Source of the DNA: a phage
DNA: 60,094 nt
Sequence record: PZ445424.1
Reading direction: 5' to 3' (one strand)
The notes below the pieces were generated by a model. It saw only the letters and a program-made list of their open reading frames with translations, did not search any database and was not told the origin of the DNA. A program made the translations under genes and the position numbers. This document shows, in pieces, positions 24,365 through 45,770 of this stretch. Position 1 is the stretch's first letter, and the number at the start of each line of letters is the position of its first letter.

Positions 24365-26350
24365 TTAGGCGTATCCCATGTCTTCGAGATACTTCTCTGC
24401 TTTAGCTATATAAGCATCATAATCTATGTCGTCCGGTACTTTATCCGGTAGCGTCATGATCGGAACACCTCCCGCGCTACCAGCTACACGGTTGCCCGAG
24501 TTAGCATAGATTATTTCAGGTGTTTCTTCATTAGTGCTTAAGTACCAGCGTACAACCTTACCCAAAAATTCGCCATTCCATACCGCACCGCCTTTTACCG
24601 CACGTAGGATAATGAATTTTCTAATATCGTTGCAATTGCGTATAGTACGAGAAACAGGCGTACCGTGGGCCAAACATTCACATACAGCTTCCATAATAAT
24701 TTCACCAGTACAGTTCTTTTGAAGACCTGTTTTTGCGAACCACCCTTTACGTTTGATTTCAACATTTCCTTCCTCGTCAGGTTCTTTTACTGCTACATAG
24801 TTGTTGACGTTAGCACTGTACAACTTGTCATAGTAGTTGGATTCCATTTCAAAACCTGTGACAGACTCCCACCACTTGATCATGCTATCGACGAACTCCT
24901 GCATGTGGTCAGGGTACTTAACCACAATACCATCCGTGTTAGCTGAAATTACTTTAACACCGTTCAGTTCAAACGCTTCAATAAGCATTAACAGCGATAG
25001 CTGTCCGGTTAATGTAACTTGTATCAATAATTGCGGAGCGTACAGTACGGACCACATTGATCCCAACTTACCGAACGATCCGTTGATTACGATCTTCAGC
25101 GTATTGGCTGTGTTCTTGTCCCCTGAGTGCTTAGCTGCAATACGTCGGTCTACAATGCTTTTATAAACACGAAGAAACGCTGGTCCCAACTGCTCAGGAT
25201 ACAAGCCCTGATTAAGAATAATAGAAGGGTAATAGGACGTTACGTCAATGTCCCGCTTCTTAATACCTGGCTCTTTACCGTGACCAGCACATTCTTCAGA
25301 GCTGTGCAAACCGCCAATACCCATACGGTAAACACCGTCTGCAATCTTAATCTCAAGCCCTGTTAACGCTGGGGGTAGGCTAACACCACCGTTATCGCTA
25401 ACAACAAAGCGGCAGTCCCGAACAATATCCAAAACACTATTCATTAGAGGTGTTTGAAAACGAATGAAATCCGGTATGTTGTATGCATACTTTGTTCCAG
25501 GATAAACTTGTGGACGCTGTGGGCGCACGCCCGTCAACGCTTGAATTTCGTGTTTAATTACGTCTTCTGCAATCTGCGCATCAGAACGTGAACGCAGATC
25601 CACACCATATTCTTGCGACATAATTTCACGCAAGTGAATAGGCTCTTGCAATGCAATAAAACATTCTTCCGTCTGTACAAGGTCGTTAATACAGTACCAG
25701 CGTACAATTAACATCTGGTCCTGCGTTAACATTGTATTTGGCTTGAACGGTAAATCCTGCATACGGCGAGTATGTACACGTCCGCCATATTGTTTCAAAC
25801 CACCAGATCCAGGCAGAACTTCCATAATATCAATGTGGTTAACGTTCTGCATACGCTTAAGGCGGTAACTCTTCAACACATCGGAAGGACGCCAGTCTTC
25901 CACGATTATCTTATCGGTTGCATCTTTAAGCTGAGCATTAGAGCAGCCGTTAAGCGCAAGCGTAGCAATGGGCATATCGTACCCGTTACCGTTAAAGCTT
26001 ACGATAAGGAAGTTTGTCATTACCCAGTTAAGTAACAAGCAATTCAAACTACAACCGTGATACATCTCGAAGTAGACAACTTTCTTAGTTCGTACTCCGC
26101 GAAATGCAATTAAGAAATAGTTTGGATAACATTCGATATCGTATACAAGCGGTTCGCGGTTAATCCATGCTTGAATAAGTTCATCCTGCGTATACAGGTT
26201 GTATTGGAAGTTCCGTGCTTCCTCAAGGTTAGGTAGATAATCCGGGCGCTCCCAAGTGCGCTCCGGCGGTAAACGTTTAACTTTTTCTTTCTTTGCTTTT
26301 GGCTCAGGCGGTAAGTCCTGCCAAAAGAAACCAATAGCATCTGTCCGCAT
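24365..26350 (-). CDS. DNA polymerase, family B-like
   Basis: Start refined to ATG 26350 (TAATG coupling with upstream gene). Exo I DxE (VYDIECYP); motif A DxxSxYPSII (DVTSYYPSIIL); motif B KxxxNSxYG-like (KIVINGSFGKLG); motif C variant SANTDGI in place of YGDTDS. Confidence 0.7.
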   Translation of the reverse strand: MRTDAIGFFWQDLPPEPKAKKEKVKRLPPERTWERPDYLPNLEEARNFQYNLYTQDELIQAWINREPLVYDIECYPNYFLIAFRGVRTKKVVYFEMYHGCSLNCLLLNWVMTNFLIVSFNGNGYDMPIATLALNGCSNAQLKDATDKIIVEDWRPSDVLKSYRLKRMQNVNHIDIMEVLPGSGGLKQYGGRVHTRRMQDLPFKPNTMLTQDQMLIVRWYCINDLVQTEECFIALQEPIHLREIMSQEYGVDLRSRSDAQIAEDVIKHEIQALTGVRPQRPQVYPGTKYAYNIPDFIRFQTPLMNSVLDIVRDCRFVVSDNGGVSLPPALTGLEIKIADGVYRMGIGGLHSSEECAGHGKEPGIKKRDIDVTSYYPSIILNQGLYPEQLGPAFLRVYKSIVDRRIAAKHSGDKNTANTLKIVINGSFGKLGSMWSVLYAPQLLIQVTLTGQLSLLMLIEAFELNGVKVISANTDGIVVKYPDHMQEFVDSMIKWWESVTGFEMESNYYDKLYSANVNNYVAVKEPDEEGNVEIKRKGWFAKTGLQKNCTGEIIMEAVCECLAHGTPVSRTIRNCNDIRKFIILRAVKGGAVWNGEFLGKVVRWYLSTNEETPEIIYANSGNRVAGSAGGVPIMTLPDKVPDDIDYDAYIAKAEKYLEDMGYA

Positions 26351-27303
26351 TAGACACGTTCTCCAATTAATACACCGCGAAGATTTTCCCCAAAGAATGC
26401 GCAAGGTTGGGGGTATAAACTAAAGTCCGCAGTCTTAACCACATTTTCAAGCAATAGCAGGATGTCAATATTGTACACTCCCGTTATTGTGCGGTCCTGT
26501 AATACGAAGCTTGCACCTTCTGCATCATCATAGTGAGTACGGGCTAGACCGTTTTCAATATATACGCGAGGTCGGTCTTCTGCGAACGGTTTAATTTTAT
26601 GCAAGCCTTCAAAAAGACCTGGATCAACAGGATGTGCATTGCATGGAACATTTAAAATACGACGTATATCGGGCCATTCCGCATCAATAAGCTGTGTCCG
26701 CAACCAGCGACCTTCCGGATAATGAAACGTTACGTTATTTTTACTAACCTGAATATGCGTCGGGTTAGCTTTAATACGCAGTATTTCTTTAATTGCAACG
26801 GAAGGTATTATGCAATCGATAGGGAACTGATTACCAAACCAGTATTCCGCAATAGTGACGTTATTTGTAGCAAACAGGCTACCGTTATTAATCAGGATAC
26901 CGCAAGCCCACGGACGGGAAGCATCGGACCCAACAAATGGAGCAACGGACTTTACACCATGCACGAAGCGAGCACCGTCTATTTCGTACAAATCACCTTC
27001 AGGGAATACGTGAGGCGTTTCCTTGTCAATGCAGCGTATAGCAACACGAAACGGTCCGGACTTGATATTAAGTTTACCGTTAGCCATCATTGTTAACTGT
27101 ACGGTTTCGTCACAGTTTGAAATAGCTTTAATCATAGGCCCAGCTTCGGGCTTGCAATCAATATCCAGCTCAATAGGGCTACCCAGTGCAATAACACCGT
27201 TAAAGCCTTGCACCTGCCCGTCACGAATAAGAAAACTGGTAAGCCCTTCTACCAGTTCCTTTTTAGCAACGGAACCTTGAACAAATTTAAGAGCGTCAAG
27301 CAT
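26350..27303 (-). CDS. Hypothetical protein, translationally coupled to DNA polymerase
   Basis: 317 aa ORF, stop overlaps polymerase start; no motif recognised. Confidence 0.4.
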   Translation of the reverse strand: MLDALKFVQGSVAKKELVEGLTSFLIRDGQVQGFNGVIALGSPIELDIDCKPEAGPMIKAISNCDETVQLTMMANGKLNIKSGPFRVAIRCIDKETPHVFPEGDLYEIDGARFVHGVKSVAPFVGSDASRPWACGILINNGSLFATNNVTIAEYWFGNQFPIDCIIPSVAIKEILRIKANPTHIQVSKNNVTFHYPEGRWLRTQLIDAEWPDIRRILNVPCNAHPVDPGLFEGLHKIKPFAEDRPRVYIENGLARTHYDDAEGASFVLQDRTITGVYNIDILLLLENVVKTADFSLYPQPCAFFGENLRGVLIGERV

Positions 27304-27539
27304 TAGGAGTCCCCATCTAAGTCTACAAGATACTCAATCTTTAATCTAAAAGGCCCCATATACGATGTAATGGCCATAATACGACCCTCGTTTTTCTCCC
27401 ATATCCAGGGCTCAGGGGGTGGTGGGGTAACTTTTGGTACATAGCCCGCGTTTGTTAACTTAGCGATAGCAACACGACCTACCGCTTTACCCCCAGCTTT
27501 AGATTGGGAAGTAATATATTCTTCACACACAGGTGTCAT
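27303..27539 (-). CDS. Hypothetical protein
   Basis: 78 aa ORF; contiguous with DpdA-like gene. Confidence 0.4.
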   Translation of the reverse strand: MTPVCEEYITSQSKAGGKAVGRVAIAKLTNAGYVPKVTPPPPEPWIWEKNEGRIMAITSYMGPFRLKIEYLVDLDGDS

Positions 27540-27766
27540 TAGCGATCCTCGATTGCTCTAATTGTGGTTAAATCTAATTCACAGGTTGGAGGGTATCCAT
27601 AAAGTCCCATTTGTTTTCCTTGTGCATTAAACCATGTGCCTGACGGATCCTGCCACTGCTTGGGTGTCTTGTGGAGAAATACTACTCTGTTTTCACCGTA
27701 ATAATTAATTCTTACGCCTGTGTGAGTATATTTACGTTTACCTTTTGGTCTTCTTAAGTTAGCCAT
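27539..27766 (-). CDS. Hypothetical protein
   Basis: 75 aa basic ORF immediately downstream of DpdA-like gene. Confidence 0.4.
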   Translation of the reverse strand: MANLRRPKGKRKYTHTGVRINYYGENRVVFLHKTPKQWQDPSGTWFNAQGKQMGLYGYPPTCELDLTTIRAIEDR

Positions 27767-28686
27767 CAGAACAACTCCATTACACGATCACGGAATGTGC
27801 CGTCATGGGTAGCGTTAATGTTTGCAGCAATTACACCATACGCCCATAAGTTGAAGGCAGCACGTGATTCATAGATTGTTGATAAACGTTCGTAAGTGAA
27901 ACCGTTTTGCTCAAGGTATTTAAGGACAGCGTCTTGTTCAATTTCAGTTAATGTTGAAACATGCTTACCAAAATGATGGCGGTCCGGTGACTTATCAGAT
28001 ACGCGCATTGGACCCCACGGAGGAGTAACCACACTTCCAAACGCAGCCGCTTGAATCCAGGAGGATGAGTCACAGCTATACCACGGATAACGCTCCATGA
28101 TGGTAGTGGACGTAATACCAAATGCATGAAGCTTAATCTTAGGGCGACCGCTACCATCGCAAATGTATTTGTCCCACATGCGGTCCAACCAAGTTTTAAG
28201 CGTGTCCGTGGAACGCCCTACCATGCCCCCAATCGTGATATATTCGTAGTTCTTCATGTAGTATTCAAGATAGCGGAAGTCCTCCCCAAAGTGAAAGCAC
28301 GGTAACGGTTTAGCACCGCGTGCTTCCATTTCAAGCTGGTTACGGTATGTTTGCAGCGGATCACCGATACCGTCGAGCACTGACGCCATTACAGCACCAT
28401 CTTCTACGCGAAGGATGTCTTTGTTGCGCTTGATGTATTCGCAGTATTCAACAATATCAATGTGAGCACCCAAAGAGTGCGCAGAGAATGCACCGGAGTC
28501 GAGAAACACTTTAGCCCCATCCGCACGCATTTGATCAACATACTTCTGACGTCCAACGTAGTGGTATGATTCCAAAATATGGGGCAGATTGCGCGTGATA
28601 TTTTTCTCATGCTCAGACAGCTTTTCATAACGCTGCTGTCCAGGCATATATCCGTTTGTGTAAACTGCTGCCATAAAAACGTTCAT
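27766..28686 (-). CDS. dpdA: DpdA-like DNA-guanine transglycosylase (TGT superfamily)
   Basis: 306 aa; VFLDSGAFS matches the catalytic-Asp DSGG(F)Q motif of tRNA-guanine transglycosylases; embedded among FolE/QueD/QueC/QueE genes; GGAG RBS. Confidence 0.65.
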   Translation of the reverse strand: MNVFMAAVYTNGYMPGQQRYEKLSEHEKNITRNLPHILESYHYVGRQKYVDQMRADGAKVFLDSGAFSAHSLGAHIDIVEYCEYIKRNKDILRVEDGAVMASVLDGIGDPLQTYRNQLEMEARGAKPLPCFHFGEDFRYLEYYMKNYEYITIGGMVGRSTDTLKTWLDRMWDKYICDGSGRPKIKLHAFGITSTTIMERYPWYSCDSSSWIQAAAFGSVVTPPWGPMRVSDKSPDRHHFGKHVSTLTEIEQDAVLKYLEQNGFTYERLSTIYESRAAFNLWAYGVIAANINATHDGTFRDRVMELF

Positions 28687-35291: not shown

Positions 35292-37274
35292 TTAGAACGG
35301 GACGTAATCCGGATCATCTACTTGTACAGGATTAACCACATTATTCACTGTTATGCCTTGCGTATTCTGTGAAACAATATCATCCCAGCTCACATCATCG
35401 TTATAGCTTGGACCTTCGGTTGTTCCATCCTGCCCGTATACTTTAACCTGAATAGCTTCGTCGTCCTGCGGTGCTTCAAACTTACCGAAACACGTACCAT
35501 CATAATCATAGTTCAATATTTCAGGCCATTTCTTATTGGTATGAACTTTGATGTATTTCGGCGTTTTGAGCATTGCAGCAACATCAAGAGCTTCTTCAAT
35601 AGTTTGTGGTAAAGGAAGATGAGTCCTTTTCTTCCACCATGCAACCGCTTTACGACCTGCCCAGTCACCGTGAAGTAGAGCTACCCATTCGCTGAATATT
35701 TTACTACCGCAATAATAAGTCACCTTCATTGTTGGAGGTTTGGAGCTGTCATTGCGTTTAGTGTGCTTCGCATAAGTGACATGCGTAACTTTAAAGTCTT
35801 CAACTACCGGAATGTCCTGTTTGATCAGTGCTTCTGTACTTGCCGCCTTTTTAAGTTTCGTCTGGAACTTAAACTCATGACCGCAAAATCCTTCTTTAAC
35901 ATAATCCGTTCCACGTAGTCTGAATCCCTTCAAATATAATTGTTGAGCTTGTTCCTGTGTAACGCTGTCCATAGGAATTGGTGCAAAGCCACCGCAATAG
36001 CGAGCAGATGCATGATTATACGACCCGCACACATCGCATTCTTTAACCGGAGCAGTACCAGCACCTTTTTCGCCCGGGCGCTTGGGTTTAACAGGGTCGT
36101 TAATAGGGCCCAAACGGCGCGTATTACCGCTGAAATCCAGTACAAGGCAGTTTTGCTTGGGGCTTGCTGCAATAGCTTGCAAGCGGCCTTCCTGCGTGGA
36201 AAGATCAAAGCCTTCAGCGTATACCGGACGCGTACCGCGACCCAGCATCTGAACCCATAGCACCGCCGACGCAGTGGGGCGAAGCATAATAATCAGATCA
36301 AGCATCGGATGGTCGAAACCTGTGGTTAGGACGTTGTTATTCGTCAACGCTCGAAACTCTCCACGCTTGAACTTTTCAATAATTTCATCACGCTCTTTTG
36401 CATCAAGCTTTGAATGGATACATCCGCAACTAATACCCATATCGTTCAGCATATCACACGCGTCTTTAGCGTGTTCAATGCCAGAACAAAATATAAGCCA
36501 GCTTTGGCGGTCTTCACCACATTCAATGGCTTCCTCAAGCGCGCGGAGTGTTGCATCGTCGCGGTTCACCGCGCTTTGCAGCTCACTCTGGATAAACTCA
36601 CCGCCGCGTTTACCTACCCCGTTGAGGTCCAGCTCCATCTTAGTACGCTTTGGTACAACCGGAAGAAGATAACCTTGCTCCAGGAACCAGTTGAAGGCTT
36701 CCGGAGTAGTTGCATCGAACGTTACCTTATCAAATAACGCATCATCGTCTTCGTTTTCCTTAACGATTGAACCATACCCCAGTCGATAAGGTGTAGCGGT
36801 AAGACCGATGATTTTTAAATACGGGTTAACTTCACGCAATGCTGCAAAGAACTTCTTATACATTGTTGCATCACGCGGACTAATAAGGTGCGCTTCATCC
36901 ACAAAGATTAGATCAACCTTGCCGAACTTTTTAGGATGCTTAGCGACGGAAGCAATCCCCGCAAATGTGATAAGATTATAAACTTCTTTACGCTTCAAAC
37001 CTGCACTGTAAATACCTGCTGGCGCTTCAGGCCAGACTTTCATTAATTTATCATAGTTTTGCGCAATCAACTCTTTGACGTGAGTTAACATCATTACGCG
37101 CTGGTTTGGATACCATTTATAAAGCAGATCGAGGAACCCCGCGATAACGAGCGATTTTCCTGTCCCTGTTGGTAACAGGATCAAAGGGTTCCCCGCGTTA
37201 CCCTTTTCAGCATCAAAATAGCGGAATACGCTATAAACTGCTTCCTGTTGATAATCGCGGAGCTGCATAATCAA
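35292..37274 (-). CDS. DNA helicase, superfamily 2 (DEAH box) with C-terminal Cys cluster
   Basis: 660 aa; DYQQEAV, Walker A LLPTGTGKS, DEAH box (FVDEAHLIS), TATPYR motif; C-terminal CDVCGSYNHASARYCGG zinc-ribbon-like. Confidence 0.7.
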   Translation of the reverse strand: MIMQLRDYQQEAVYSVFRYFDAEKGNAGNPLILLPTGTGKSLVIAGFLDLLYKWYPNQRVMMLTHVKELIAQNYDKLMKVWPEAPAGIYSAGLKRKEVYNLITFAGIASVAKHPKKFGKVDLIFVDEAHLISPRDATMYKKFFAALREVNPYLKIIGLTATPYRLGYGSIVKENEDDDALFDKVTFDATTPEAFNWFLEQGYLLPVVPKRTKMELDLNGVGKRGGEFIQSELQSAVNRDDATLRALEEAIECGEDRQSWLIFCSGIEHAKDACDMLNDMGISCGCIHSKLDAKERDEIIEKFKRGEFRALTNNNVLTTGFDHPMLDLIIMLRPTASAVLWVQMLGRGTRPVYAEGFDLSTQEGRLQAIAASPKQNCLVLDFSGNTRRLGPINDPVKPKRPGEKGAGTAPVKECDVCGSYNHASARYCGGFAPIPMDSVTQEQAQQLYLKGFRLRGTDYVKEGFCGHEFKFQTKLKKAASTEALIKQDIPVVEDFKVTHVTYAKHTKRNDSSKPPTMKVTYYCGSKIFSEWVALLHGDWAGRKAVAWWKKRTHLPLPQTIEEALDVAAMLKTPKYIKVHTNKKWPEILNYDYDGTCFGKFEAPQDDEAIQVKVYGQDGTTEGPSYNDDVSWDDIVSQNTQGITVNNVVNPVQVDDPDYVPF

Positions 37275-38179
37275 TCTTTCCCGTAATAGTTAGCTACTTG
37301 ATAGTTTTGACAACCAACTTTTTGACCCTGAGTATCTACTGCAACGGAATGGAAATTGCAATACCATGTTCCATCATCTTTTGGCTCAAGAAATTGACAT
37401 GTGCGACAGTTTACTTCCGGCATAGTTTTACGCCAGCACAATGAGGAGTGGTCACACCATTTGCATTCGAAGAAGGTAGAGTCTTTGAATGCACGGTCAG
37501 GAATATCAGTAGCAATAGCAATCTGCACACCACGATCAATATACATGTCCGCAGTGACCGGATCAAATGGAATAATTTCTGCGTAAACTTCATCATCGTT
37601 CTTGTTTACAGCAAGATATAACGCTGCGCCAAGTCCAAGCTTTCGCATGTACACGTTCATCTGTACATAGTGCTCAGGTTTAGCTTCTTTGACACCTTTA
37701 GCTTTCAGCTTCTTGAAAGACTTATCATTATGGGTCTTCATTTCAGTAAGCACAGGCATTCCAGGCTGCACGTCCGGACAACCTATAACCACACCATCGC
37801 AGGAACCGCCAAAGTGTCCACCCGCTTCACTGATACGGAACTGGTGTCCGTTTTCATCCTGCTGGTAGACCTGCATACCTGCCGCAAGAAGCATAGCAAT
37901 AAAGCGCGCTTCTTCCAGATGTCCGCGGTTAAATAAGCGGAGCTGGCGTCCATCAAACTCTTTACGCGTAGCCCAGCGATATCCGTAGAACAGCTTGCGA
38001 GCACATTGCTGTCCAATAAGGGAAGCACCTAAGTGGCTGCGATTTCCGCTTTCAGGACGATATGCGTCTTCAATTGTGGGAATAACTACGCCGAGATATT
38101 TACGGTAAGTCCCACCCTGATCTTTTTGCACACCGTCATTGATTGCTTGAAGTGTTTTTTCTGCAATATAAATAGCCAT
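37271..38179 (-). CDS. PD-(D/E)xK exonuclease, RecB/Cas4-like with predicted Fe-S cysteines
   Basis: 302 aa; D...EMK core, QxxxY motif (HYVQMNVY), N-terminal Cys plus C-terminal Cys cluster CKWCDHSSLC...C. Confidence 0.55.
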   Translation of the reverse strand: MAIYIAEKTLQAINDGVQKDQGGTYRKYLGVVIPTIEDAYRPESGNRSHLGASLIGQQCARKLFYGYRWATRKEFDGRQLRLFNRGHLEEARFIAMLLAAGMQVYQQDENGHQFRISEAGGHFGGSCDGVVIGCPDVQPGMPVLTEMKTHNDKSFKKLKAKGVKEAKPEHYVQMNVYMRKLGLGAALYLAVNKNDDEVYAEIIPFDPVTADMYIDRGVQIAIATDIPDRAFKDSTFFECKWCDHSSLCWRKTMPEVNCRTCQFLEPKDDGTWYCNFHSVAVDTQGQKVGCQNYQVANYYGKD

Positions 38180-38244
38180 TGGAGTACCTTAGAAAAATAA
38201 GCCGTCTTTCGACGGCTTAGGGACACTACAGAGGGAGGGTTAAC

Positions 38245-39114
38245 TTACTGCTGCCACGGCGGGACTGCTGCTTGTGCCGGATGCGGTTCAGCTTGCTGCT
38301 GTGGCTGCGCTTGCTGCTGTGGTGCTGCTGCCTGGCCCGGCTGTGCTACCTGCTGCGCCCACGGCTGCTGAGCTGCTTCCGGTGCTACTGGCTGTTGTAC
38401 CGGAGCTTGCTGAACTGGCTGCTGCGGCGCTGCGTTTTGAGCAGGATTATCCCACGGCTGCGGTGCTGCGTTCTGCCACGGTTGAGCTGCTGCGCCCTGC
38501 TGCGGTGCTGGTTGCTGAACAGGCTGCTGTTGCTGTACCGGAGCTTGCTGCTGTACAGGTGCTTGCTGTTGCTGAGCAAACGGGTTAGCTGCTGGTTGCT
38601 GTGGCGCTGCGCCCGGGAAAGTTGGCTGCTGTGCTGGCGCACCTGCACCAAACGGGTTAGCTACTGCTGGAGCACCCATTGATGGAGCCTCTGCTGCTTT
38701 TTCTGCATATTTAACCGGATCGTTAATGTTAGCGTAACCGTTAGGCTCGTTGCTGTCTTCATAACCTTCCTGAGAACGAACTTTCAGACGCAGGTTCAGC
38801 GGAATGTTATGCAATTGAGCAGGAGTATCCCAGCGAATTACACCAACTGCATGAGACAGAGCGCCCAGTTGCTCGTAAGCGATACGAACAGTATCTTCGT
38901 TGTCATTGATGACGTTATAACGAGCGAAGATTTTACGACCTTTAGCAAAACCGTCAATGATGCTAAACGTTACCTGGATCGCCATACCGCCATTTTTGGT
39001 CGCTTTAAACTCAGACGCTTCAATTACTGCTTTATACCAACCTTTTGGCAATGCGCCGTAAGAAGGTGCTTGATATTGGCTCGCGTCAAAGGTGAATTTA
39101 GTTGGCATAGTCAT
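38245..39114 (-). CDS. DUF669-like ssDNA-binding protein with Gln/Pro/Ala-rich C-terminal tail
   Basis: 289 aa; structured N-terminal ~130 aa followed by QQPxxQQ low-complexity tail; adjacent to Sak4-like ATPase, the usual DUF669 context. Confidence 0.45.
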   Translation of the reverse strand: MTMPTKFTFDASQYQAPSYGALPKGWYKAVIEASEFKATKNGGMAIQVTFSIIDGFAKGRKIFARYNVINDNEDTVRIAYEQLGALSHAVGVIRWDTPAQLHNIPLNLRLKVRSQEGYEDSNEPNGYANINDPVKYAEKAAEAPSMGAPAVANPFGAGAPAQQPTFPGAAPQQPAANPFAQQQQAPVQQQAPVQQQQPVQQPAPQQGAAAQPWQNAAPQPWDNPAQNAAPQQPVQQAPVQQPVAPEAAQQPWAQQVAQPGQAAAPQQQAQPQQQAEPHPAQAAVPPWQQ

Positions 39115-39842
39115 TAGTTAATACCTTTCATTTTGTTGATAACAGAACCTAAGTGTGGGACTTCAACCGCATCTAAACGTCCCGAACGATCCTTAGCGAT
39201 TGTATTAAAGTCCGGTTGAGTTTGCAAGTAACGATATGAGTTACCTTGCTGATCTTTATTTACATTCAGACGAAATACTTCGTCGAAGAAATAAGGGAGC
39301 ATTTGTCCCAATTTGGACCCAGGCATAGATGGAGCATACGCGGTAACACCGGAGACTTCATCTTTGTCTTTGCCCATTTTAGCAGACATATAAACATGTT
39401 TGCCAGGGATATCGCGAAATTTACGGATCAGATCTTGCATCTTTTCAAGCAAAGTACCATAAGCTTGACGAGGATCTTTTGTTCCTTTTTTCGCATTGTT
39501 TAAACATTGTTCAGCAATTTCGCTCAAGCTGTCAAGCGCAATAGAATCGAAATACTGCTGGTTAGCTGGAGTTACACACCACTGATAAGCAGCTTCAACG
39601 TCCTCCAGACATTTAACTTCGATAACAGGAATGTCATAAACAATCGGCAATCCCATGTTACCATAAACACGATTAAGGTTTTCCGCTGCAATAGATAACA
39701 GACCGGACTCTGCGCTGATCAAAATTGGTTTAGGTAGTGTGGCTACAAGGCTGGTTTTACCCATACCCGCTTCACCGTAAACCAGAATTTTAACGCCTGT
39801 GTCTTGCACTACTTGTGAAGACATTTTAATTTCAATGGCCAT
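39114..39842 (-). CDS. Sak4-like RecA-family ATPase (AAA_24)
   Basis: 242 aa; Walker A VYGEAGMGKTS near N-terminus; size and context typical of phage Sak4. Confidence 0.6.
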   Translation of the reverse strand: MAIEIKMSSQVVQDTGVKILVYGEAGMGKTSLVATLPKPILISAESGLLSIAAENLNRVYGNMGLPIVYDIPVIEVKCLEDVEAAYQWCVTPANQQYFDSIALDSLSEIAEQCLNNAKKGTKDPRQAYGTLLEKMQDLIRKFRDIPGKHVYMSAKMGKDKDEVSGVTAYAPSMPGSKLGQMLPYFFDEVFRLNVNKDQQGNSYRYLQTQPDFNTIAKDRSGRLDAVEVPHLGSVINKMKGIN

Positions 39843-39907
39843 TTAACGCCTCTCTTTTAAGTTCGTGCTCATTGTAACGTAATATACTTTGAACCCTCAA
39901 TTACTTT

Positions 39908-40822
39908 TTAATCTAAAGCCTGATCAGTTTCATCGCGGAAATGCATAAAGTTAGCAAAACGCGGTTTATCTTTAACTCCATGAGGGAAGTGCTTATATGA
40001 AATAGTCCGACCTTTAATCTTATCAGGATTATTCCAATAATAAATCTTATCCTCTTGCGTTAATTTACCAGGACTAACGTTGATTGTATTGCCCGTCTTA
40101 ACGTCTTTACAAACAAGCGTCCCGATCATACCATTAGGAACTTTATTTTCCTGATGTGAAGATCGTGTAGTCCTTCCCAGCTCGTTAACAGTAGCTTCAT
40201 TAAGATTAGTTTCACCCTCAATAATATCGAGGACAATAGCGTCTTCCTGAATAAAGCGTTTAATACGAAGATATCCACCTTCTCGAACTGTACCGCGCCC
40301 ATGCTTATAAGGCTTTTCAGGATCACGGATAATAATACCTTCATAACCCATATCAAGCCAGATGTTTTCCCAGTAGAGCAGCTCTTGCAAAGACTTAACC
40401 ACATACATCGGCACAACTTGCAGGTCGAGCAGTTCACCTTTCGCGTGCTGTGTGGTTATAAAATCTTTCATCATGTTGTAGCGTGCTTCATAGCCCAGCT
40501 CTGCAACACTTTCCGCGCACAGATCAAAGATGTGCCATTTCAGGAACGGTTCGCCTTCAATTGTGTTTACCGCACTGGTTGTTTTACGACACAGATCCGG
40601 GTCCGTTTCAACACCTGCTGCAAGCTCGCCGTCATAGCCCATGTACTGGGGACCGCTGAAAATTGCGCTTGTATGGCGGTTTTTAAACAGCTTTAAGCTG
40701 CGCCCTACTATTTGCCCATCCGGATTTAAACCGCGTACACCGTCGATTTTAGGCAGTATGCAGCACGGAAACTTAATCTTTTCTTCAATCGCGTCAGTTG
40801 CTAAATGTGGTTTAAAAGACAT
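39908..40822 (-). CDS. ATP-dependent DNA ligase
   Basis: 304 aa; adenylation motif I KIDGVRG (KxDGxR); EGIIIRDP resembles motif IV. Confidence 0.7.
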   Translation of the reverse strand: MSFKPHLATDAIEEKIKFPCCILPKIDGVRGLNPDGQIVGRSLKLFKNRHTSAIFSGPQYMGYDGELAAGVETDPDLCRKTTSAVNTIEGEPFLKWHIFDLCAESVAELGYEARYNMMKDFITTQHAKGELLDLQVVPMYVVKSLQELLYWENIWLDMGYEGIIIRDPEKPYKHGRGTVREGGYLRIKRFIQEDAIVLDIIEGETNLNEATVNELGRTTRSSHQENKVPNGMIGTLVCKDVKTGNTINVSPGKLTQEDKIYYWNNPDKIKGRTISYKHFPHGVKDKPRFANFMHFRDETDQALD

Positions 40823-40823
40823 A

Positions 40824-41447
40824 CTACAACCTCATCCAAGTTTGATAGTCAGCTTCTGTATAATGCTGTTCACGCTCACGTTTAGTAAGCATATCAGCTT
40901 TCTCTTTCATACGGGTATTACGACGTAAATGCCCGCTACCATTTTTAGGTCTATTCTCCTTTTTCTTTGCTTCGGAAATAAGCTCTTTGCATTCCTGCAA
41001 ACGGATTTTGCTTCTTTCCAACCGCATAGCAGAACGCGCACGTTCATCACAAAATCTTTGAGCTTTGCTACGCTGGTCCTGATTACTTGTATGACCTTTA
41101 ACGTGGCGAAACTCAATAGTAAGGTTATATTTACGAAGTTGATCGTTCAACCATTTGAAAGCTGTACCTTCCTGTTCGCTTTTCCAGCTTGCCTCTTTAT
41201 ACACTTTAATAGCAGTTGAACAATCTGTTTGCACAATTAGATGATCTCCCGATTGAATCAAATTAGCTTTCAATCCTTCCCAAATAACATTACAAATTGC
41301 CATTGTTTCGGCTGCATTGTTATCCGGAGCACCGCGTAATGGGCCACCATTAGCATTATTTCCACGGTTACAGACTACCCATCCACCATATCCCGCGGCT
41401 TTTGTATTTGGGCAAAAACTTGCATCAGAAATAATTGTTACTCTCAT
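40824..41447 (-). CDS. Ribonuclease H (type 1) with basic C-terminal extension
   Basis: 207 aa; RNase HI motifs ISDASF...AGYGG, NNAAETMA, QTDCSTAI, HVKGH...DERARSA. Confidence 0.75.
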   Translation of the reverse strand: MRVTIISDASFCPNTKAAGYGGWVVCNRGNNANGGPLRGAPDNNAAETMAICNVIWEGLKANLIQSGDHLIVQTDCSTAIKVYKEASWKSEQEGTAFKWLNDQLRKYNLTIEFRHVKGHTSNQDQRSKAQRFCDERARSAMRLERSKIRLQECKELISEAKKKENRPKNGSGHLRRNTRMKEKADMLTKREREQHYTEADYQTWMRL

Positions 41448-41492
41448 TGTTTTTCCTTAATAAAAAGGGGGGTCGAAAGACCCCCTTGTAAG

Positions 41493-41723
41493 TTATGCAG
41501 GAATAGATTCTTCCGGTTCTTCAGGGATCACGATTTCAATCTCTTCTTCATTTTGGAAGGTTAGACGGAAACCATCTCCTGGGCGCCCGAAAGCAAAAGT
41601 AAGGGCTATCGTATTATCCTGCTCGTAATGACAGATACTTTCTACTTTCATTTCGTTACCGTAAAAGTCACGGTAAATCATTCCAGGAAGCGCATCGGTC
41701 GCTTTGATCTTTCTTACAGCCAT
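41493..41723 (-). CDS. Hypothetical protein
   Basis: 76 aa ORF. Confidence 0.35.
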   Translation of the reverse strand: MAVRKIKATDALPGMIYRDFYGNEMKVESICHYEQDNTIALTFAFGRPGDGFRLTFQNEEEIEIVIPEEPEESIPA

Positions 41724-41734
41724 TATTCCCCCGT

Positions 41735-42538
41735 TTACAGTTTGTCTTTGAACTCTTCAATATATTGCTCGATCGGATACTGCTTACGCTTGAAACGATC
41801 AAACAAGATTTTAGCAGATTCTACGTCTTCGTCGCTCTCTTTACTTGCGCCCGGTGCCATAAAATCACGCCATGTAAAACCGTTCAGATTATGCATCTTA
41901 GCGATGTGTTTATTGTAACGACTTTCCCAGTCAATACGCTGAGCACGACCCTGGAGCTGAGCTGGCGGAATACCGCGTCCAAGAACTTGCACATATAGAT
42001 CTTTCTGACGTTGTACAGCTTCGCCGTTATAAGGTCCGGTTTTAAACTCAACAACACTACCTTTAAGATCTACACCATCCGCAAAGTTGTGTAGCATAGT
42101 TTCAATAACGTCATTCAATGTTGGAACAGTCACTTTGCCCTGGGCAATACCTGCCAAATAACCGACATTTTCTTCACCGTACAACTCGATCAGTTCTTTC
42201 TTGGTCGCTTCTGCTTCTTTGTTTGCGGACAAAGCCAACATCTGTTGTTCGAACATGTGCTCCTGTTCCAGGAAGTGGGCATAGCGTTCTTCGTCCACTT
42301 TGCAAACAATCCATTTATATTCAACATCCTTGCTGAAGTCCGGATACTGATCCACTTCTACTACTTCCGTAGTAAAGAACTTGCCGTTATATTGAATAAC
42401 AACAGTATCGCCCGGCTGTAATTCGTCGCTTTCCAGGGCACGGTAGGTATAAAGACGACCACCTGCTTCAAACTTAACTTTGACAGTTACAACACCTTTT
42501 AACAGGGCATGATACGCTTTCTGAAATTCTTTACGCAT
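41735..42538 (-). CDS. Hypothetical protein
   Basis: 267 aa ORF, no motif recognised. Confidence 0.45.
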   Translation of the reverse strand: MRKEFQKAYHALLKGVVTVKVKFEAGGRLYTYRALESDELQPGDTVVIQYNGKFFTTEVVEVDQYPDFSKDVEYKWIVCKVDEERYAHFLEQEHMFEQQMLALSANKEAEATKKELIELYGEENVGYLAGIAQGKVTVPTLNDVIETMLHNFADGVDLKGSVVEFKTGPYNGEAVQRQKDLYVQVLGRGIPPAQLQGRAQRIDWESRYNKHIAKMHNLNGFTWRDFMAPGASKESDEDVESAKILFDRFKRKQYPIEQYIEEFKDKL

Positions 42539-42579
42539 TTTAGTTTCCTCTTGGGCGGATCAACCGCCCGTTAATGTGG

Positions 42580-42990
42580 TTAAGCTTTATTTGGAACGAT
42601 TTCCAGTGACGCGGAACCAACTTTCGATTCAACGCACTGGTTAAAGACTGCGGCTTGCTCCGCTGTAAGTTTACGCCAAGCCGCAACTTTCAACACAGGT
42701 TTATTTTCTACAAGCTGATCAACGTTAACACCAACTTTAATCAGATCGCCCAGGATTCCGTTAAGACTTGGAAGATCAATCTTACGATCAATCTTGTGAG
42801 TCATTTTCATAACCCCGCCAGTAATTTCAACTTTATTAGTCCCCTCAGACGGCGCTGGGAAATATGATTTAATAATCTTTTCGCGTAGTGCTCGCTCGCG
42901 AGCTTGAAGCTTTTGTAATTCTGCTTTGGTTTTATACCACTCAATAACATCTGCTTCGGTTGCTTGTACTGCTTTATCTGCGTCGAACAT
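42580..42990 (-). CDS. Hypothetical protein
   Basis: Start refined to ATG 42990 (RBS AGAGGA); 136 aa. Confidence 0.4.
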   Translation of the reverse strand: MFDADKAVQATEADVIEWYKTKAELQKLQARERALREKIIKSYFPAPSEGTNKVEITGGVMKMTHKIDRKIDLPSLNGILGDLIKVGVNVDQLVENKPVLKVAAWRKLTAEQAAVFNQCVESKVGSASLEIVPNKA

Positions 42991-43231
42991 TTTTCTATCC
43001 TCTGTTGTGTTTCGATGTATGTATAATAGCACATCCATGTGACAGGGCAAGACTCAATCTGTATCAATTAATCTTTTTAAACGGATTAGTAATCTAGCAA
43101 CCTTCCTCCATTCAGCATCCTCCATTAATGGTGAAGGCTTATACGCTTCAGGTATCGGACAAGGTATATAGGGTTCCATGTCAGATATTACTTGCTTTGA
43201 TAACTTTTTCTTCCGTTTACCCATAAATAAC

Positions 43232-43819
43232 CTATTTCAAATAGCGGGAAGTCATGATTGGATGCAAAGACACTTCTTCCTCAGATGTAACCACATTGGC
43301 AGACGTGCCCGTGGACCCAAAGCCATTAGCACCGCGCTCAGTAGTCTTAAGCTCGTCCACTTCTACCAGTTGCACGCAAGGCACCTTAATAAGCATAGCT
43401 TGCGCAATACGATCACCATGACTAACGGTAAAACTACCATCATGATCAATAGTAAGCTTAACTTTAACTTCGCCAGTGTAGTCGCTATCAATAACGCCCA
43501 CGCAGTTTGCCAAACGCACGTCATTTTTGAATCCATGTCCGCTACGGGAATAGACCATAAGCGCATATCCTTTAGGGATATCAAACGCTAACCCTGTGCG
43601 GAATATGTGCTCGTAAGAGAAAATGATTTGTTCACAACCGTCTTCACTTTTGAGATCCGCGTGCAGGTCAAAGCAAGCTGCCCCGGCAGTGGCGAACGCT
43701 GGTAGAATTGCGGTGTCCGTTAAGCGCTTCACACCGACCGGAATTGTGCTTAATGATGCGGCAAATTTTTCAACATCAATTGCAAAAGAATTTTTTGTGA
43801 TATTTAATACGTCAGTCAT
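43232..43819 (-). CDS. dut: dUTP diphosphatase (dUTPase)
   Basis: 195 aa; five dUTPase motifs: AGAACFDL, YSRSGHGF, GVIDSDYTGE, GDRIAQ, RGANGFGSTG; N- and C-terminal extensions. Confidence 0.8.
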   Translation of the reverse strand: MTDVLNITKNSFAIDVEKFAASLSTIPVGVKRLTDTAILPAFATAGAACFDLHADLKSEDGCEQIIFSYEHIFRTGLAFDIPKGYALMVYSRSGHGFKNDVRLANCVGVIDSDYTGEVKVKLTIDHDGSFTVSHGDRIAQAMLIKVPCVQLVEVDELKTTERGANGFGSTGTSANVVTSEEEVSLHPIMTSRYLK

Positions 43820-43828
43820 AATTTCACC

Positions 43829-44296
43829 TTATTGAATTGAACCGCGATCAATTAACCATTGTTTCGCGTGCGCTTTAAAAATAATGCGATAGTCATCAAG
43901 ACTAATCTCCGCGCGGATGGAATCTTTAACTTCGTACCACTGCCACTCGCCATTGCTAAAGACAACTGGATTGAGTGGTAGAACAACCTTCCATCCTTTA
44001 CGTTCTATTTTATACATCAGAACTGGATATCTGCCAAGCTCTTTAGCGGATTGAACAGTCTGCTTCCACCATGTGTTCACCTGTGGTGTAGCATGGTTTT
44101 TTACTTCAACCGCATGGTGGCATGTATTGCTAATGTCGCAACCACCGACCGCACTTTGATTCTGGTTACGCTGAGCAATAGGTTTCTCCGGTAACTGCAT
44201 CCCCAGCTCTGCGTAGATTTCGGCATAAATTGCATTAAAGAAATCGCATACTTCCCGCTCACCGCGTTGACCTTTAGCGCGAATATTTACTGCCAT
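43829..44296 (-). CDS. Putative PD-(D/E)xK nuclease (Holliday-junction resolvase-like)
   Basis: 155 aa; GERE...GGCD...VEVK pattern compatible with a PD-(D/E)xK core; weak assignment. Confidence 0.35.
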   Translation of the reverse strand: MAVNIRAKGQRGEREVCDFFNAIYAEIYAELGMQLPEKPIAQRNQNQSAVGGCDISNTCHHAVEVKNHATPQVNTWWKQTVQSAKELGRYPVLMYKIERKGWKVVLPLNPVVFSNGEWQWYEVKDSIRAEISLDDYRIIFKAHAKQWLIDRGSIQ

Positions 44297-44297
44297 T

Positions 44298-44600
44298 TCA
44301 AATCCCCTTTAAAGACTCACCAATAATCCGTTTAATTTTACATAGTCTGCGAACTTGAGTAAAGAACGCTCCGTTTTTCCATGGTACGCCAAAATCTCCG
44401 GTTGTGATTGGTTGCATAAAACCTGGAAGAACAATGCTAGCGCTAGCTGTAACTCCATCCGGTTTATTGTCAATAGTGATAATATAGTCTTCGTCCATTT
44501 TACTCATAATGCAACCAGACTCGACATCCGTCCCCATATAACGCACTTGCACAGACCATCCTGATTGCGACAGGTGCTGTTTAAATTCTTCATATGTCAT
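44298..44600 (-). CDS. Hypothetical protein
   Basis: 100 aa ORF; candidate promoter TTGAGA-15-TATAAA immediately upstream on - strand. Confidence 0.4.
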   Translation of the reverse strand: MTYEEFKQHLSQSGWSVQVRYMGTDVESGCIMSKMDEDYIITIDNKPDGVTASASIVLPGFMQPITTGDFGVPWKNGAFFTQVRRLCKIKRIIGESLKGI

Positions 44601-44672
44601 ATAATCTCCAAAAGTTGAATATAAAACACTTCATAAAGAATTTTATATTGAAGTTCTGTTGATCTCAAGGAA

Positions 44673-44704
44673 CAAAAAAGCCCAGGCATAAGGATTCCTG
44701 GGCT
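44673..44704 (-). terminator. Rho-independent terminator (- strand)
   Basis: On - strand: AGCCCAGG-loop-CCTGGGCT followed by TTTTTT. Confidence 0.6.
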
Positions 44705-45016
44705 CTCTTGATTGTCGGATAGCTTACTTTGACTGCCGTCTTCGTCTATCCTGGCCTACTTGTACAGCCTCGCCAAAGGCTGGTGACGGTTTGGTACATC
44801 TGGCGCCGTCGCGTTAAACATCGTTCACATCGTTCAGTAAGTTGCGGGTTTACCCTGTCCGCTCCAGGAAGCCCAGCGAAAGTAGTTGCTGTAAGGAGGT
44901 ACAGCTACCGCTTTCAAGGGCTTGAGTTAAGCATCGTTCACTAAGTTAATGTTGTTAAATTGTTAAACCTCGTTAACTGTGGTTATCTTAAAGGATGCAG
45001 TCTTGAATGGCAAGCT

Positions 45017-45334
45017 TCAATTTTGCGCGGTCCCCTTTGCCGCTTTTGGTGCTAAAGTACCATCATTTAACATCAACTCAAAACCTGTTACTTGATCGGT
45101 TGGAACAATAGGGTAATTCATGATAGCCATGTGGATACAACACCCTCCATCACATTCGTCGATGTATTCACTACCCCAATAGTATAAATGACCATCTCTT
45201 CGAATATCCATTGCTGTAGGGAAATCTACAAGAATTCTTTTGATTTCTTTTCGTCCTTCTTTATGCAGATTAGTTTCAATACGGATAAGCTCCGCATAAA
45301 TTGCTTCACAGATAGTATTTACAATTCCCATCAT
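45017..45334 (-). CDS. Hypothetical Cys-rich protein
   Basis: 105 aa; ECDGGCCIH motif. Confidence 0.4.
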   Translation of the reverse strand: MMGIVNTICEAIYAELIRIETNLHKEGRKEIKRILVDFPTAMDIRRDGHLYYWGSEYIDECDGGCCIHMAIMNYPIVPTDQVTGFELMLNDGTLAPKAAKGTAQN

Positions 45335-45529
45335 TTACCCCCTTAAGTTTTGAATCATTCTATCACAGGCAGCTTTTACAGAAGAGTTCTGCCAGTCTTC
45401 TTCAATTTGTGAAGGTTCTTCAGGCGAATAAGCAGCACTAATCAAGCACTGATTATAACCTTCAATATAAGCTTGCTTTGCGGTATCGACTATTGCTCGT
45501 AAAGCGATATTGAATAATTGTTGATCCAT
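45335..45529 (-). CDS. Hypothetical protein
   Basis: Start refined to ATG 45529 (RBS GAGGTG); 64 aa. Confidence 0.35.
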   Translation of the reverse strand: MDQQLFNIALRAIVDTAKQAYIEGYNQCLISAAYSPEEPSQIEEDWQNSSVKAACDRMIQNLRG

Positions 45530-45537
45530 TTTACACC

Positions 45538-45612
45538 TCACAGAATGTACATAAACCAGAAATAACCAGCTACGAAAATAGCACCCGCAAATAATTTTAA
45601 AAGCTCGAACAT
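45538..45612 (-). CDS. Candidate small hydrophobic peptide (24 aa, MFELLKLFAGAIFVAGYFWFMYIL)
   Basis: Unlisted mini-ORF with strong RBS GGAGGG 4-5 nt upstream of ATG; its stop overlaps the RBS of the next gene; single TM-like helix. Confidence 0.3.
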   Translation of the reverse strand: MFELLKLFAGAIFVAGYFWFMYIL

Positions 45613-45770
45613 TGTTCCCTCCGTTAACTTTATGCTGTAAGTATAGCAGGACTTACGATGTATGCAACAACTTTAGACTTGAAATACATCTATAAAATAG
45701 CACGATTTGCCTTTACCTCTGATCCGTCTAGCTGTACTATTAACACATAAACAGAGCGGAGGATTACAAA

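Follow-up and report, generated by a model that had tools for sequence, protein, structure and literature searches.

The stretch of DNA that was analyzed (the window) is the 60,094-nucleotide phage record PZ445424.1, and on its minus strand, at 24365..26350, lies bas23_0033, which encodes a 661 amino acid protein and is annotated as 'DNA polymerase' in Escherichia phage WildeMaa (Bas23, Seuratvirus). The polymerase sequence is 100% identical to that in MZ501112.1. At its longest, the minus-strand open reading frame covers 24365..26404 and opens on an upstream TTG; the polymerase start is the ATG at 26350, in agreement with the deposited annotation and with homologues that open with MRxDAxGFFW. 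This ATG sits on the TAA of the upstream gene for a 317 amino acid protein, bas23_0034 (26350..27303, minus strand), at a junction that reads gtcTAATGcgg, so the two genes share one base. Beyond bas23_0034 lies the gene annotated as DpdA, a 7-deazaguanine DNA transglycosylase (27766..28686, minus strand). bas23_0033 is the sole annotated DNA polymerase in the WildeMaa record, which also contains a primase, an SF2 helicase, a ligase and an RNase H. The positions of the polymerase motifs given below were checked by translating the exact coordinates.

A preliminary description of this DNA suggested that bas23_0033 is a divergent family-B polymerase, and both parts of this suggestion are borne out. 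The protein matches the DNA polymerase profile phrog_1252 (E=4.7e-228), and a profile search against the PDB returned 26 matches that were family-B polymerases only, with Dpo1 of S. solfataricus (1s5j; E=5.9e-8) first and E. coli Pol II (3k57; E=1.1e-5) second; no T4/RB69 or herpesvirus chains were found among these 26. In a Foldseek comparison of its AF2 model (pLDDT 91.5) to the PDB, the best 50 matches were all family-B polymerases (E about 1e-15, probability 1.00, about 720-780 aligned columns). Together, AF2 and Foldseek support a family-B fold with an N-terminal domain, a 3'-5' exonuclease domain and palm, fingers and thumb domains, and neither the profile search nor the fold search of the PDB led to a non-polymerase family. 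The divergence is evident in Pfam, where no family-B polymerase model was significant and the only trace was a weak match to DNA_pol_B_exo2 at residues 116-182; precomputed Pfam domains were likewise absent from the clusters homologous to bas23_0033. Since Pfam overlooks the group of family-B polymerases with an NTDG motif, which is described below, the missing match is no argument against the assignment.

Analysis of the protein sequence shows that both active sites are well preserved. The exonuclease motifs, all on the minus strand, are Exo I DIE (D71 and E73; 26132..26140), Exo II NGNGYD (N120 and D125; 25976..25993) and Exo III YCIND (Y219 and D223; 25682..25696), and the residues named do not vary in either the 67 close or the 12 very diverse homologues. 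Motif A, DIDVTSYYPS (25223..25252, minus strand), contains the catalytic Asp D369 and reads DVTSYYPS against DxxSLYPS; D369, S372 and P375 do not vary in the 12 diverse members. Motif B, KIVINGSFGKLG (25061..25096, minus strand), is of the KxxxNSxYG type, against which it reads KIVINGSFG; it aligns with Dpo1, Pol II and Pol alpha, and its K419, N423 and G427 are invariant. Exo I, motif A and motif B had been recognized at the outset, and they prove to be intact. The KxY site is deviant, as it reads KRKG without a Tyr (24743..24754, minus strand), yet K535 is invariant in the 12 diverse members and the site can be aligned to the KG of Dpo1. With the exception of the first Asp of motif C, the catalytic residues of the exonuclease and polymerase sites are invariant in members down to 20-25% identity.

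Motif C itself is VISANTDGIVV (24920..24952, minus strand). In phmmer and hmmsearch comparisons to PDB sequences it is paired with VLYGDTDSLFL of Dpo1 (1s5j) and VIYGDTDSTFV of E. coli Pol II (3k57), and therefore N471 (24938..24940) stands where the first Asp is normally found, while the second Asp is kept as D473. No second candidate for motif C with a DxD was found elsewhere in bas23_0033, and the non-canonical motif C that had been pointed out, SANTDG in place of YGDTDS, is thus the true one. The substitution is no accident of this one sequence: N471, T472, D473 and G474 show no variation in the 67 homologues. Of 148 cluster representatives of the family, which comprises 6,371 clusters, 146 have NTDG, as do 10 of the 12 very diverse phage polymerases; the motif is also found in crAss-like, 9NA-like, Barbavirus, Jedunavirus, Lactococcus and Leuconostoc phages. 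The TDG-Ile that follows the variable residue is similar to that in the DTDGI of Pol epsilon. NTDG is the hallmark of a large known group of phage polymerases and not a peculiarity of WildeMaa, and it was already used in 2011 to define the 'PolIIphages' (Kazlauskas and Venclovas; PMC3201878). A deviating motif C occurs in other accepted groups of family-B polymerases as well (piPolB, B2/G2, PolB_SITDG and crAss-like), so family membership is not excluded by it.

Two further candidates were considered in connection with this motif and rejected. D367, two residues before the Asp of motif A and invariant in the close homologues, might be seen as a stand-in for the missing Asp; it is clade-specific, and in the wider NTDG members the position is taken by N, A, L, E, I, S, W or R. 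Membership in the 'PolB_SITDG' cluster (Kazlauskas et al., 2020) does not fit either, as the members of that cluster come from cyanobacteria and algae, with a hydrophobic residue where N471 stands.

The 'PolIIphages' enzymes are phage-encoded and carry the same NTDG active-site motif, and bas23_0033 is a later-sequenced member without substantive difference. In 2011 the group was described as more like E. coli Pol II than the core viral family-B polymerases of T4 and herpesvirus (PMC3201878). As Dpo1, and not Pol II, is the best PDB sequence match, this closeness to Pol II is only loosely seen in bas23_0033, whose sequence similarity to E. coli Pol II is confined to motifs B-C (E=1e-5). E. coli Pol II likewise has the family-B fold, with an active 3'-5' exonuclease, and binds a beta-type clamp by the short hydrophobic peptide QLGLF. 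It differs in its canonical YGDTDS, in the C-terminal location of its clamp peptide and in being a repair/translesion enzyme on the host clamp rather than a phage replicase. A tblastn search with bas23_0033 against the polymerases of crAss-like phages gave E=7e-48 for cr4_1 and about 1e-29 to 1e-31 for cr8_1 and C0521BD4, and NTDG and K-x-K-G are common to both sides. In the survey of Kazlauskas et al. (2020; PMC7544198), the crAss-like group is a divergent branch of the EpsilonN-like clade in which motif C and KxY are deviant. Judging from these similarities, bas23_0033 most likely belongs to the crAss-like group within the Pol-epsilon-N-like clade. The crAss-like loci examined are without a partner clamp and N-terminal extension, whereas the Queuovirinae enzyme has both.

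A motif C that has lost its first Asp but kept the second is also seen in the piPolB enzymes, whose motif at the matching position we take to be TTD, and in the archaeal B2/G2 polymerases. These belong to other clades, namely the pPolB+piPolB cluster and the B1-3-like clade, and the B2/G2 enzymes differ further in that they have no Exo motifs and carry a compensating D(K/R) motif, whereas bas23_0033 has intact Exo motifs and no universally conserved substitute Asp. One reading of the shared substitution, as it is reported for piPolB (PMC7544198), is that bas23_0033 is itself a protein-primed or primer-independent polymerase of the pPolB/piPolB kind. We find this scarcely credible, as its best sequence and fold matches are RNA/DNA-primed family-B polymerases (archaeal B1/B3, Pol II and Pol alpha) and not those of phi29 or PRD1, and the phage has a primase, an RNase H and a ligase for primed lagging-strand synthesis in addition to a sliding clamp. 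In the 2020 survey, related sequences are placed in 'PolBmain', the label given to Halfdan-like sequences, and not in the pPolB+piPolB cluster (PMC7544198).

The adjoining bas23_0034 had been described as an unassigned protein that might be an accessory factor. The label 'unassigned' does not apply, as the public WildeMaa record already gives 'DNA polymerase beta subunit', but the accessory role was well guessed. bas23_0034 matches the processivity factor profile phrog_947 (E=5e-82), Pfam DNA_pol3_beta_2 (E=1.7e-4) and, in a profile search against the PDB, beta clamps (E=3.8e-5). Its AF2 model (pLDDT 92) shows the three-domain DnaN fold, with the best 50 Foldseek matches being all DnaN (TMq 0.74-0.84, about 360 columns, E about 1e-19), so that profiles and structure together identify a beta-sliding-clamp homologue. 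Its acidic pI of 5.56 fits ring-type clamps under the criterion of the 2011 study, in which polIII-beta clamp homologues were also reported in the related Pseudomonas phage 73 and BcepGomr (PMC3201878). Among the mid-sized hypothetical proteins of WildeMaa no clamp loader was found, only an AAA_24 protein and a DUF669 protein. These are presumably a recombination ATPase and an SSB-like protein, respectively, and not a loader of the gamma/tau type. A phage family-B polymerase held to a phage-encoded clamp by a terminal peptide is also found in T4 (gp43 and gp45); for bas23_0033 such an arrangement is proposed only. T4 has a PCNA-like trimeric clamp and a dedicated loader, gp44/62, whereas the clamp of WildeMaa is of the three-domain beta type, with no loader detected and with the proposed tether at the N-terminal of the polymerase.

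The candidate for this tether is the N-terminal extension of bas23_0033 (residues 1-45; 26216..26350, minus strand), which consists of DAIGFFW (26321..26341), a Lys/Pro-rich linker and W..PDYLPNL. The candidate clamp-binding peptide is MRTDAIGFFWQDL. G7, F9, W10 and D12 of the extension are invariant in homologues, and in the AF2 model the first 20 residues have a pLDDT of 46-60 and the W..PDYLP half one of 80-88. When the presence of an extension of at least 35 amino acids was set against that of an adjacent clamp gene, the two-by-two counts were 49/1/3/23 (Fisher p=3.5e-15, a statistic inflated by shared ancestry, with ~4 independent transitions). On an NJ tree there are at least 4 transitions, and in 3 of the minimum 4 the extension and the clamp gene change together. 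Inside the clamp clade, the lineages without a clamp (L066 and L056/L070) have also lost the extension. The same peptide also precedes the unrelated catalytic bodies of family-A polymerases whose genes follow a clamp gene (42% identity over residues 2-60, E=7e-10); a related-locus search with the family-A polymerase of Vibrio phage GH32 gave 4 loci, and the family-A result was repeated with tblastn. DAIGFFW resembles the beta-binding QL[S/D]LF and the QLGLF of Pol II (for example, SLGLFW against QLGLF), but it is without the conserved Gln and is N-terminal, whereas such motifs are usually C-terminal.

The co-occurrence of the peptide with the clamp gene and its presence on the swapped-in family-A polymerases suggest that this flexible N-terminal peptide may tether the polymerase to the phage clamp. 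Another explanation, which we regard as rather unlikely, is that the peptide contacts a different replisome partner (helicase, primase or SSB) or acts intramolecularly as an element of the exonuclease domain. The W..PDYLP half may, from its pLDDT, pack on that domain, the canonical Gln is absent, and the clamp gene and the peptide have for the most part been inherited together. Against this, the occurrence of the peptide goes with the clamp gene rather than with the family of the polymerase, the clamp-losing lineages dropped it too, and its hydrophobic core fits the beta-binding consensus.

The missing Asp also raises the question of whether the polymerase is dead or weak, with replication left to host polymerases or to a phage primase-polymerase. 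The phage primase does contain an NrS-1 polymerase-like domain, and the archaeal B2 enzymes, with a single Asp in motif C, were long thought inactive and are weak enzymes (PMC7544198). However, selection for catalysis is implied by the remaining catalytic residues, which stay unchanged in both active sites throughout thousands of clusters, and piPolB, which lacks the same Asp, is highly active (PMC7544198). The gene has also been exchanged in situ with bona fide family-A polymerase genes (including cases in PMC11348598), a swap that implies functional equivalence, and a dedicated clamp accompanies the polymerase. A dead or weak enzyme is thus very unlikely. Members of the family have been handled as regular replicative family-B polymerases (PMC11348598). 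A literature search for biochemical data on any NTDG-type enzyme found none. The DNA polymerase of Enterococcus phage IME199 (PMC10590003) was considered as proof of an active enzyme of the NTD type and set aside, as it is presented as phi29-like and differs in motif spacing; it is absent from the 60 relatives listed for the Enterococcus NTDA-type protein.

In our opinion, bas23_0033 is very probably the replicative, proofreading family-B polymerase of WildeMaa in the NTDG group, which works with the phage's own beta-type clamp, the peptide tether being a proposal. We infer from the conserved motifs that the enzyme is catalytically competent and that its metal ligands would be the two carboxylates needed by all palm polymerases, D369 of motif A and D473 of motif C. 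By analogy to piPolB, the Asn in place of the first Asp of motif C may be an ancestral, family-wide and tolerated substitution. The polymerase would work with the clamp encoded immediately upstream, across the TAATG overlap, and DAIGFFW, the linker and W..PDYLP would hold it there.

It was also suggested earlier that this lineage is adapted to modified-base templates; in this reading the Asn would serve the copying or making of 7-deazaguanine (preQ0) DNA. bas23_0033 is separated from dpdA by about 1.4 kb and adjoins preQ0 pathway genes, and of 80 related loci, 35 have DpdA within 4 kb of the clamp-polymerase pair. Yet NTDG is kept far beyond deazaguanine phages, in all the phage groups named above. 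The polymerase family has 1,081 phage records against 242 for DpdA, with largely different host genera, and at least about 418 of the 1,081 belong to name groups with no more than 3 DpdA-positive records each (Rheinheimera, Enterococcus, Klebsiella, Gordonia, Leuconostoc and 'uncultured'), and the family-wide motif is found in hundreds of phages without DpdA. In the deazaguanine phages Vibrio GH32 and Pseudomonas Baskent_P4_1, the polymerase slot of the dpdA-clamp-polymerase locus is filled by a family-A enzyme. Position 7 of guanine faces the major groove, and Watson-Crick pairing is unaffected by its modification. In phage CAjan, preQ0 is placed at GA/GGC motifs, for which the DpdA transglycosylase is needed, and phi29 polymerase was able to amplify the modified DNA (PMC7544227). 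The adaptation to modified templates is already largely refuted, and we hold it to be highly improbable.

A different link to DNA modification is hinted at by the tail of DpdA itself. The WildeMaa protein ends in TFRDRVMELF, of which VMELF (27769..27783) is similar to a clamp-binding motif. Among the 35 DpdAs near a clamp-polymerase pair, 33 end in Phi-[FY] and 23 in Q-x(1,2)-Phi-F, whereas the QxxLF-like tail is missing from 5 DpdAs of phages without a clamp. A scan of the window for a loose terminal-motif pattern found 4 cases where 3.1 are expected by chance, with DpdA as the only real gene; as this single-genome rate is no better than chance, the case for the DpdA tail rests on conservation across genomes. 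One tentative possibility, to which we give somewhat less than even credence, is that the clamp acts as a hub which would take up a family-B or family-A polymerase through the portable N-terminal G-Phi-F-W peptide and DpdA through a C-terminal QxxLF-type peptide, with guanine exchanged for preQ0 on freshly replicated DNA at the fork. The clamp of T4, gp45, is also a hub, for ligase and late-transcription factors. In a literature search, neither the N-terminal peptide module nor a link between DpdA and the clamp was found. The polymerase group and its NTDG motif are already known; the clamp-peptide module and the DpdA tail are new side results, and the tail gives a hint of a coupling between DNA modification and the replisome.

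The motif that drew attention to this locus had been published as the hallmark of a very large group of phage polymerases, and the gene itself was already annotated. From this it can be learned that a missing 'catalytic' Asp in motif C need not point to an unusual or inactive enzyme, nor closeness to DNA-modification genes to a functional adaptation. Thousands of clusters make up the NTDG group, among them polymerases from many crAss-like phages of the gut. The terminal peptides offer a testable model for a clamp-centred replisome in these phages of roughly 40-60 kb without a recognisable clamp loader. If the clamp does act as a hub, DNA hypermodification would be a replisome-coupled process, and the same model bears on how DpdA may get to almost every one of its target motifs in the course of an infection.

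The region at positions 24365-27303 of the window is identical (100%) to Escherichia phage WildeMaa (Bas23; MZ501112.1), a Seuratvirus of the Queuovirinae, and in this region window positions equal the MZ501112.1 coordinate minus 535. A minus strand reading frame from an upstream TTG spans 24365..26404. The true polymerase start is the ATG at 26350, which gives a protein of 661 amino acids; the deposited CDS bas23_0033, named 'DNA polymerase', begins there and the homologues all start with MRxDAxGFFW. The stop codon TAA of the 317 amino acid gene upstream overlaps with this ATG (gtcTAATGcgg). Translation of the exact coordinates on the minus strand gives Exo I DIE, Exo II NGNGYD, Exo III YCIND, motif A DIDVTSYYPS, motif B KIVINGSFGKLG and motif C VISANTDGIVV, and so confirms all the motifs that were named in the preliminary description.

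That description had also read the first catalytic aspartate of motif C as replaced, which is correct. PDB sequence searches with the protein (phmmer) and with a family profile of 67 sequences (hmmsearch) matched family-B polymerases only (S. solfataricus Dpo1, E=5.9e-8; E. coli Pol II, 1.1e-5; Pol alpha, ~2e-5), and VISANTDGIVV pairs residue by residue with VLYGDTDSLFL and VIYGDTDSTFV of PDB PolBs. No second DxD candidate for motif C was found in the polymerase. The alignments thus place Asn471 at the first Asp position, with the second Asp (D473) kept. The AlphaFold2 model (pLDDT 91.5, pTM 0.85) finds PolB in all of the best 50 Foldseek matches in the PDB, with full-length alignment and a probability of 1.00. 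None of the Pfam PolB models is significant on this protein (best DNA_pol_B_exo2, E=0.029), and precomputed Pfam domains are absent from all homologous clusters. The polymerase really is a divergent PolB, and therefore it looked odd.

The Asn in motif C is not peculiar to WildeMaa. At least 7,962 homologous clusters were found by word-indexed search, while a profile search run exhaustively over 1.84 billion representatives gave 6,371 clusters with E<=1e-3, of which 3,258 reach E<=1e-30; by tblastn the family is present in 1,081 phage records. NTDG is found in 146 of the 148 best representatives with a locatable motif C, and in 10 of 12 members of a diverse alignment (20-45% identity), including Septimatrevirus, Casjensviridae, a 9NA-like phage, Barbavirus, Jedunavirus, two crAss-like phages, a Lactococcus phage and a Leuconostoc phage. 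The other two are an Enterococcus phage with NTDA and an actinophage helicase-primase-fused enzyme with KTDS, so the first position of motif C tolerates N in some groups of phage PolBs and K in others. The residues invariant across the 12 (D71, E73, N120, D125, Y219, D223, D369, S372, P375, K419, N423, G427, T472, D473 and K535) comprise, apart from the first Asp of motif C, all catalytic residues of the two active sites. The NTDA-type enzymes of Enterococcus Efquatroviruses (phage SZ1; L009, 1382..3673) have an unrelated N-terminal region of ~175 amino acids, and the KTDS enzyme of Gordonia phage Gravy (L010, 371..4210) is an actinophage primase-polymerase fusion.

Halfdan, UniRef50_A5A3R5 and L7TMG7, which are close relatives, fall in the 'PolBmain' dataset of Kazlauskas et al. 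(PMC7544198), and family members from Serratia JS26, barbaviruses and crAss-like phages were described as regular replicative PolBs subject to in situ swaps with PolA (Yutin et al., 2024; PMC11348598). NTDG is already known: it has been published as the hallmark of a very large group of phage polymerases, which are annotated as such. Our literature search for a biochemical study of an NTDG enzyme found none; the IME199 polymerase paper was rejected, as that enzyme is phi29-like.

One question raised by this motif is whether it is an adaptation to modified-base templates, as had been proposed. A deazaguanine module (DpdA at 27766..28686, FolE, QueD, YhhQ, QueC and QueE) adjoins the polymerase, and dpdA-clamp-polB synteny is seen in 35 of 80 loci of the closest subclade. 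Four arguments speak against a functional connection between motif C and this module. First, NTDG is invariant in lineages without DpdA. The PolB records include 436 in six name groups, Rheinheimera (115), Enterococcus (109), Klebsiella (77), Gordonia (55), 'uncultured' (41) and Leuconostoc (39); all six are missing from the top ten groups by number of DpdA-positive records, and the last of these ten has 3. Second, Vibrio phage GH32 (Queuovirinae) and Pseudomonas phage Baskent_P4_1 are deazaguanine phages of equal locus architecture in which PolA replaces PolB (Pfam DNA_pol_A, E about 1e-64). Third, the guanine 7-position points to the major groove and has no role in base pairing. Fourth, CAjan, the type Seuratvirus, carries preQ0 at GA and GGC motifs in a DpdA transglycosylase-dependent manner, and its modified genome was amplified with phi29 polymerase (PMC7544227), which has the canonical DTD.

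The 317 amino acid protein (bas23_0034; 26350..27303, minus strand), which had been suggested as an accessory factor, proved to be a sliding clamp homologue. The deposited annotation reads 'DNA polymerase beta subunit'. The protein matches phrog_947 ('processivity factor', E=5e-82) and, weakly, Pfam DNA_pol3_beta_2, and a PDB search with its profile finds beta clamps of bacteria (E=3.8e-5). The model (pLDDT 92) has the three-domain DnaN fold, with TM-scores of ~0.8 to bacterial clamps at just 14-18% sequence identity. PolIII-beta clamp homologues were reported in Pseudomonas phage 73 and BcepGomr, together with an electrostatic criterion that separates ring-forming clamps from direct DNA binders (PMC3201878); under this criterion the acidic pI of 5.56 fits a ring-forming clamp rather than a direct DNA binder.

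No clamp loader is annotated in the record, and none was found by Pfam scans of mid-sized hypothetical proteins in 38245..39842 (minus strand) and the whole replication module (35292..48358). These gave only an AAA_24 protein (39114..39842, minus strand), a P-loop candidate, the adjoining DUF669 protein (38245..39114, minus strand), and a primase; the first two are presumably a recombination ATPase and its SSB-like partner. The 778 amino acid 'DNA primase' (46022..48358, minus strand) carries an NrS-1 polymerase-like HBD (E=1.5e-6) and DUF3987 (E=2.8e-12) and looks like a fusion of a primase-polymerase with a helicase-like domain, not a DnaG-type enzyme.

The surroundings of the clamp gene vary. 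Five loci (L016, L023, L043, L080 and L041) have a clamp-polymerase gap of 330-680 nt that holds an extra small gene, absent in WildeMaa: in L016 a 134 amino acid protein with an HNH-like ...HHVDHIVPLNG motif, recognized by eye, and in L023 and L043 proteins of ~120 amino acids starting ..CGGR...GGARGAD. Escherichia phage phiG7 has a ~570 bp insertion in this region. Between dpdA and the clamp gene the window has small ORFs of 78 and 75 amino acids (27303..27766, minus strand) that overlap their neighbours by one base each (boundaries 27303, 27539 and 27766); RHEph04 likewise has two, and in 9g, Baskent_P4_1 and GH32 dpdA abuts the clamp gene directly. P0142, a 773 amino acid family protein, has ~97 N-terminal residues resembling the clamp start (MLTALQLVLPAVGSKKL...NGYVTAFNGQ...) ahead of the polymerase; a gene fusion, truncation of the clamp or a frameshift artefact could explain this.

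Close homologues of the polymerase share an extension of ~70 amino acids before Exo I, in which R.D..G[FLM]FW.[DE] is followed by a Lys/Pro-rich linker and W..PDYLPGL.EA; G7, F9, W10 and D12 are invariant, and residues 1-20 are modelled with pLDDT of 46-60. Of the 76 IMG/VR and phage loci of the family that could be scored, with the extension scored at >=35 amino acids and the clamp as the adjacent upstream gene, 49 have both, 1 the extension alone, 3 the clamp alone and 23 neither (Fisher p=3.5e-15, inflated by shared ancestry). The gaps of 47-188 nt between the clamp and polymerase genes in the three clamp-only loci suggest miscalled start codons. An NJ tree requires a minimum of 4 changes in the clamp state, 3 of which (L066, L056/L070 and L091) are accompanied by a change in the extension.

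Stronger evidence than this statistic is that the peptide is also found on family-A polymerases that replace PolB downstream of the clamp, in GH32 (L101, 7883..9919) and Baskent_P4_1 (L099, 7868..9880). Residues 2-60 of the window enzyme and 3-64 of GH32 PolA are 42% identical (E=7e-10), whereas the two enzymes have unrelated catalytic bodies. Within deazaguanine phages, PolA and PolB have been swapped in situ with retention of a portable N-terminal module. The PolA of Salmonella phage BP63 (Rosemountvirus; L107, 3501..5468), which also follows a clamp gene, starts MSFLFDSF…GWRPRAHYPDL. The PolA lineage comprises 189 phage records, whose alignments all begin at residues 1-7, many of them annotated beside a 'beta subunit/processivity factor'. 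The hydrophobic core of the peptide (AIGFFW in WildeMaa, SLGLFW in some members) is similar to that of the beta-binding consensus QL[S/D]LF and the Pol II peptide QLGLF (PMC3716654), but it lacks the Gln and is N-terminal. Based on the clamp co-occurrence, the same peptide on PolAs and the beta-binding-like core, we propose that this putative tether would hold the polymerase to the clamp.

DpdA may be recruited in a similar way. WildeMaa DpdA ends in …DRVMELF (VMELF at 27769..27783, minus strand). Among 35 related loci with DpdA, 33 tails end Phi-[FY], Phi being a hydrophobic residue, in the last six residues (chance ~0.07 per tail), and 23 of these 33 have Q-x(1,2)-Phi-F (chance ~0.006) after an otherwise variable tail. 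The DpdAs of 9g (RLQDLFDE), Baskent_P4_1 (NEQMELF), RHEph04 (TREQRLF) and GH32 (LDQPGLF), all clamp-encoding phages, have the same kind of end; these QxxLF-like peptides resemble the beta-clamp-binding consensus. Five DpdAs whose phages lack the clamp-polymerase pair (Arbiter, Typha, Sonali, phiSM and Epa33) have unrelated ends, but these are far more distant, so that phylogeny confounds the comparison. Within the window alone the loose terminal pattern is not rarer than chance, and a literature search for a DpdA-sliding clamp link found no paper. The conserved tails suggest recruitment of DpdA by the sliding clamp; under this hypothesis DpdA would ride the clamp and DNA modification would be coupled to replication.

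Of the initial interpretation, a divergent PolB with an accessory factor stands and the adaptation to modified bases does not. The NTDG feature is already known, while the clamp-tether reading is new and inferred. Of lasting value are the gap in the biochemical literature on NTDG enzymes and the terminal peptides of PolB (N-terminus) and DpdA (C-terminus); the peptides make a model testable in which both the replisome and DNA modification would be centred on the clamp.
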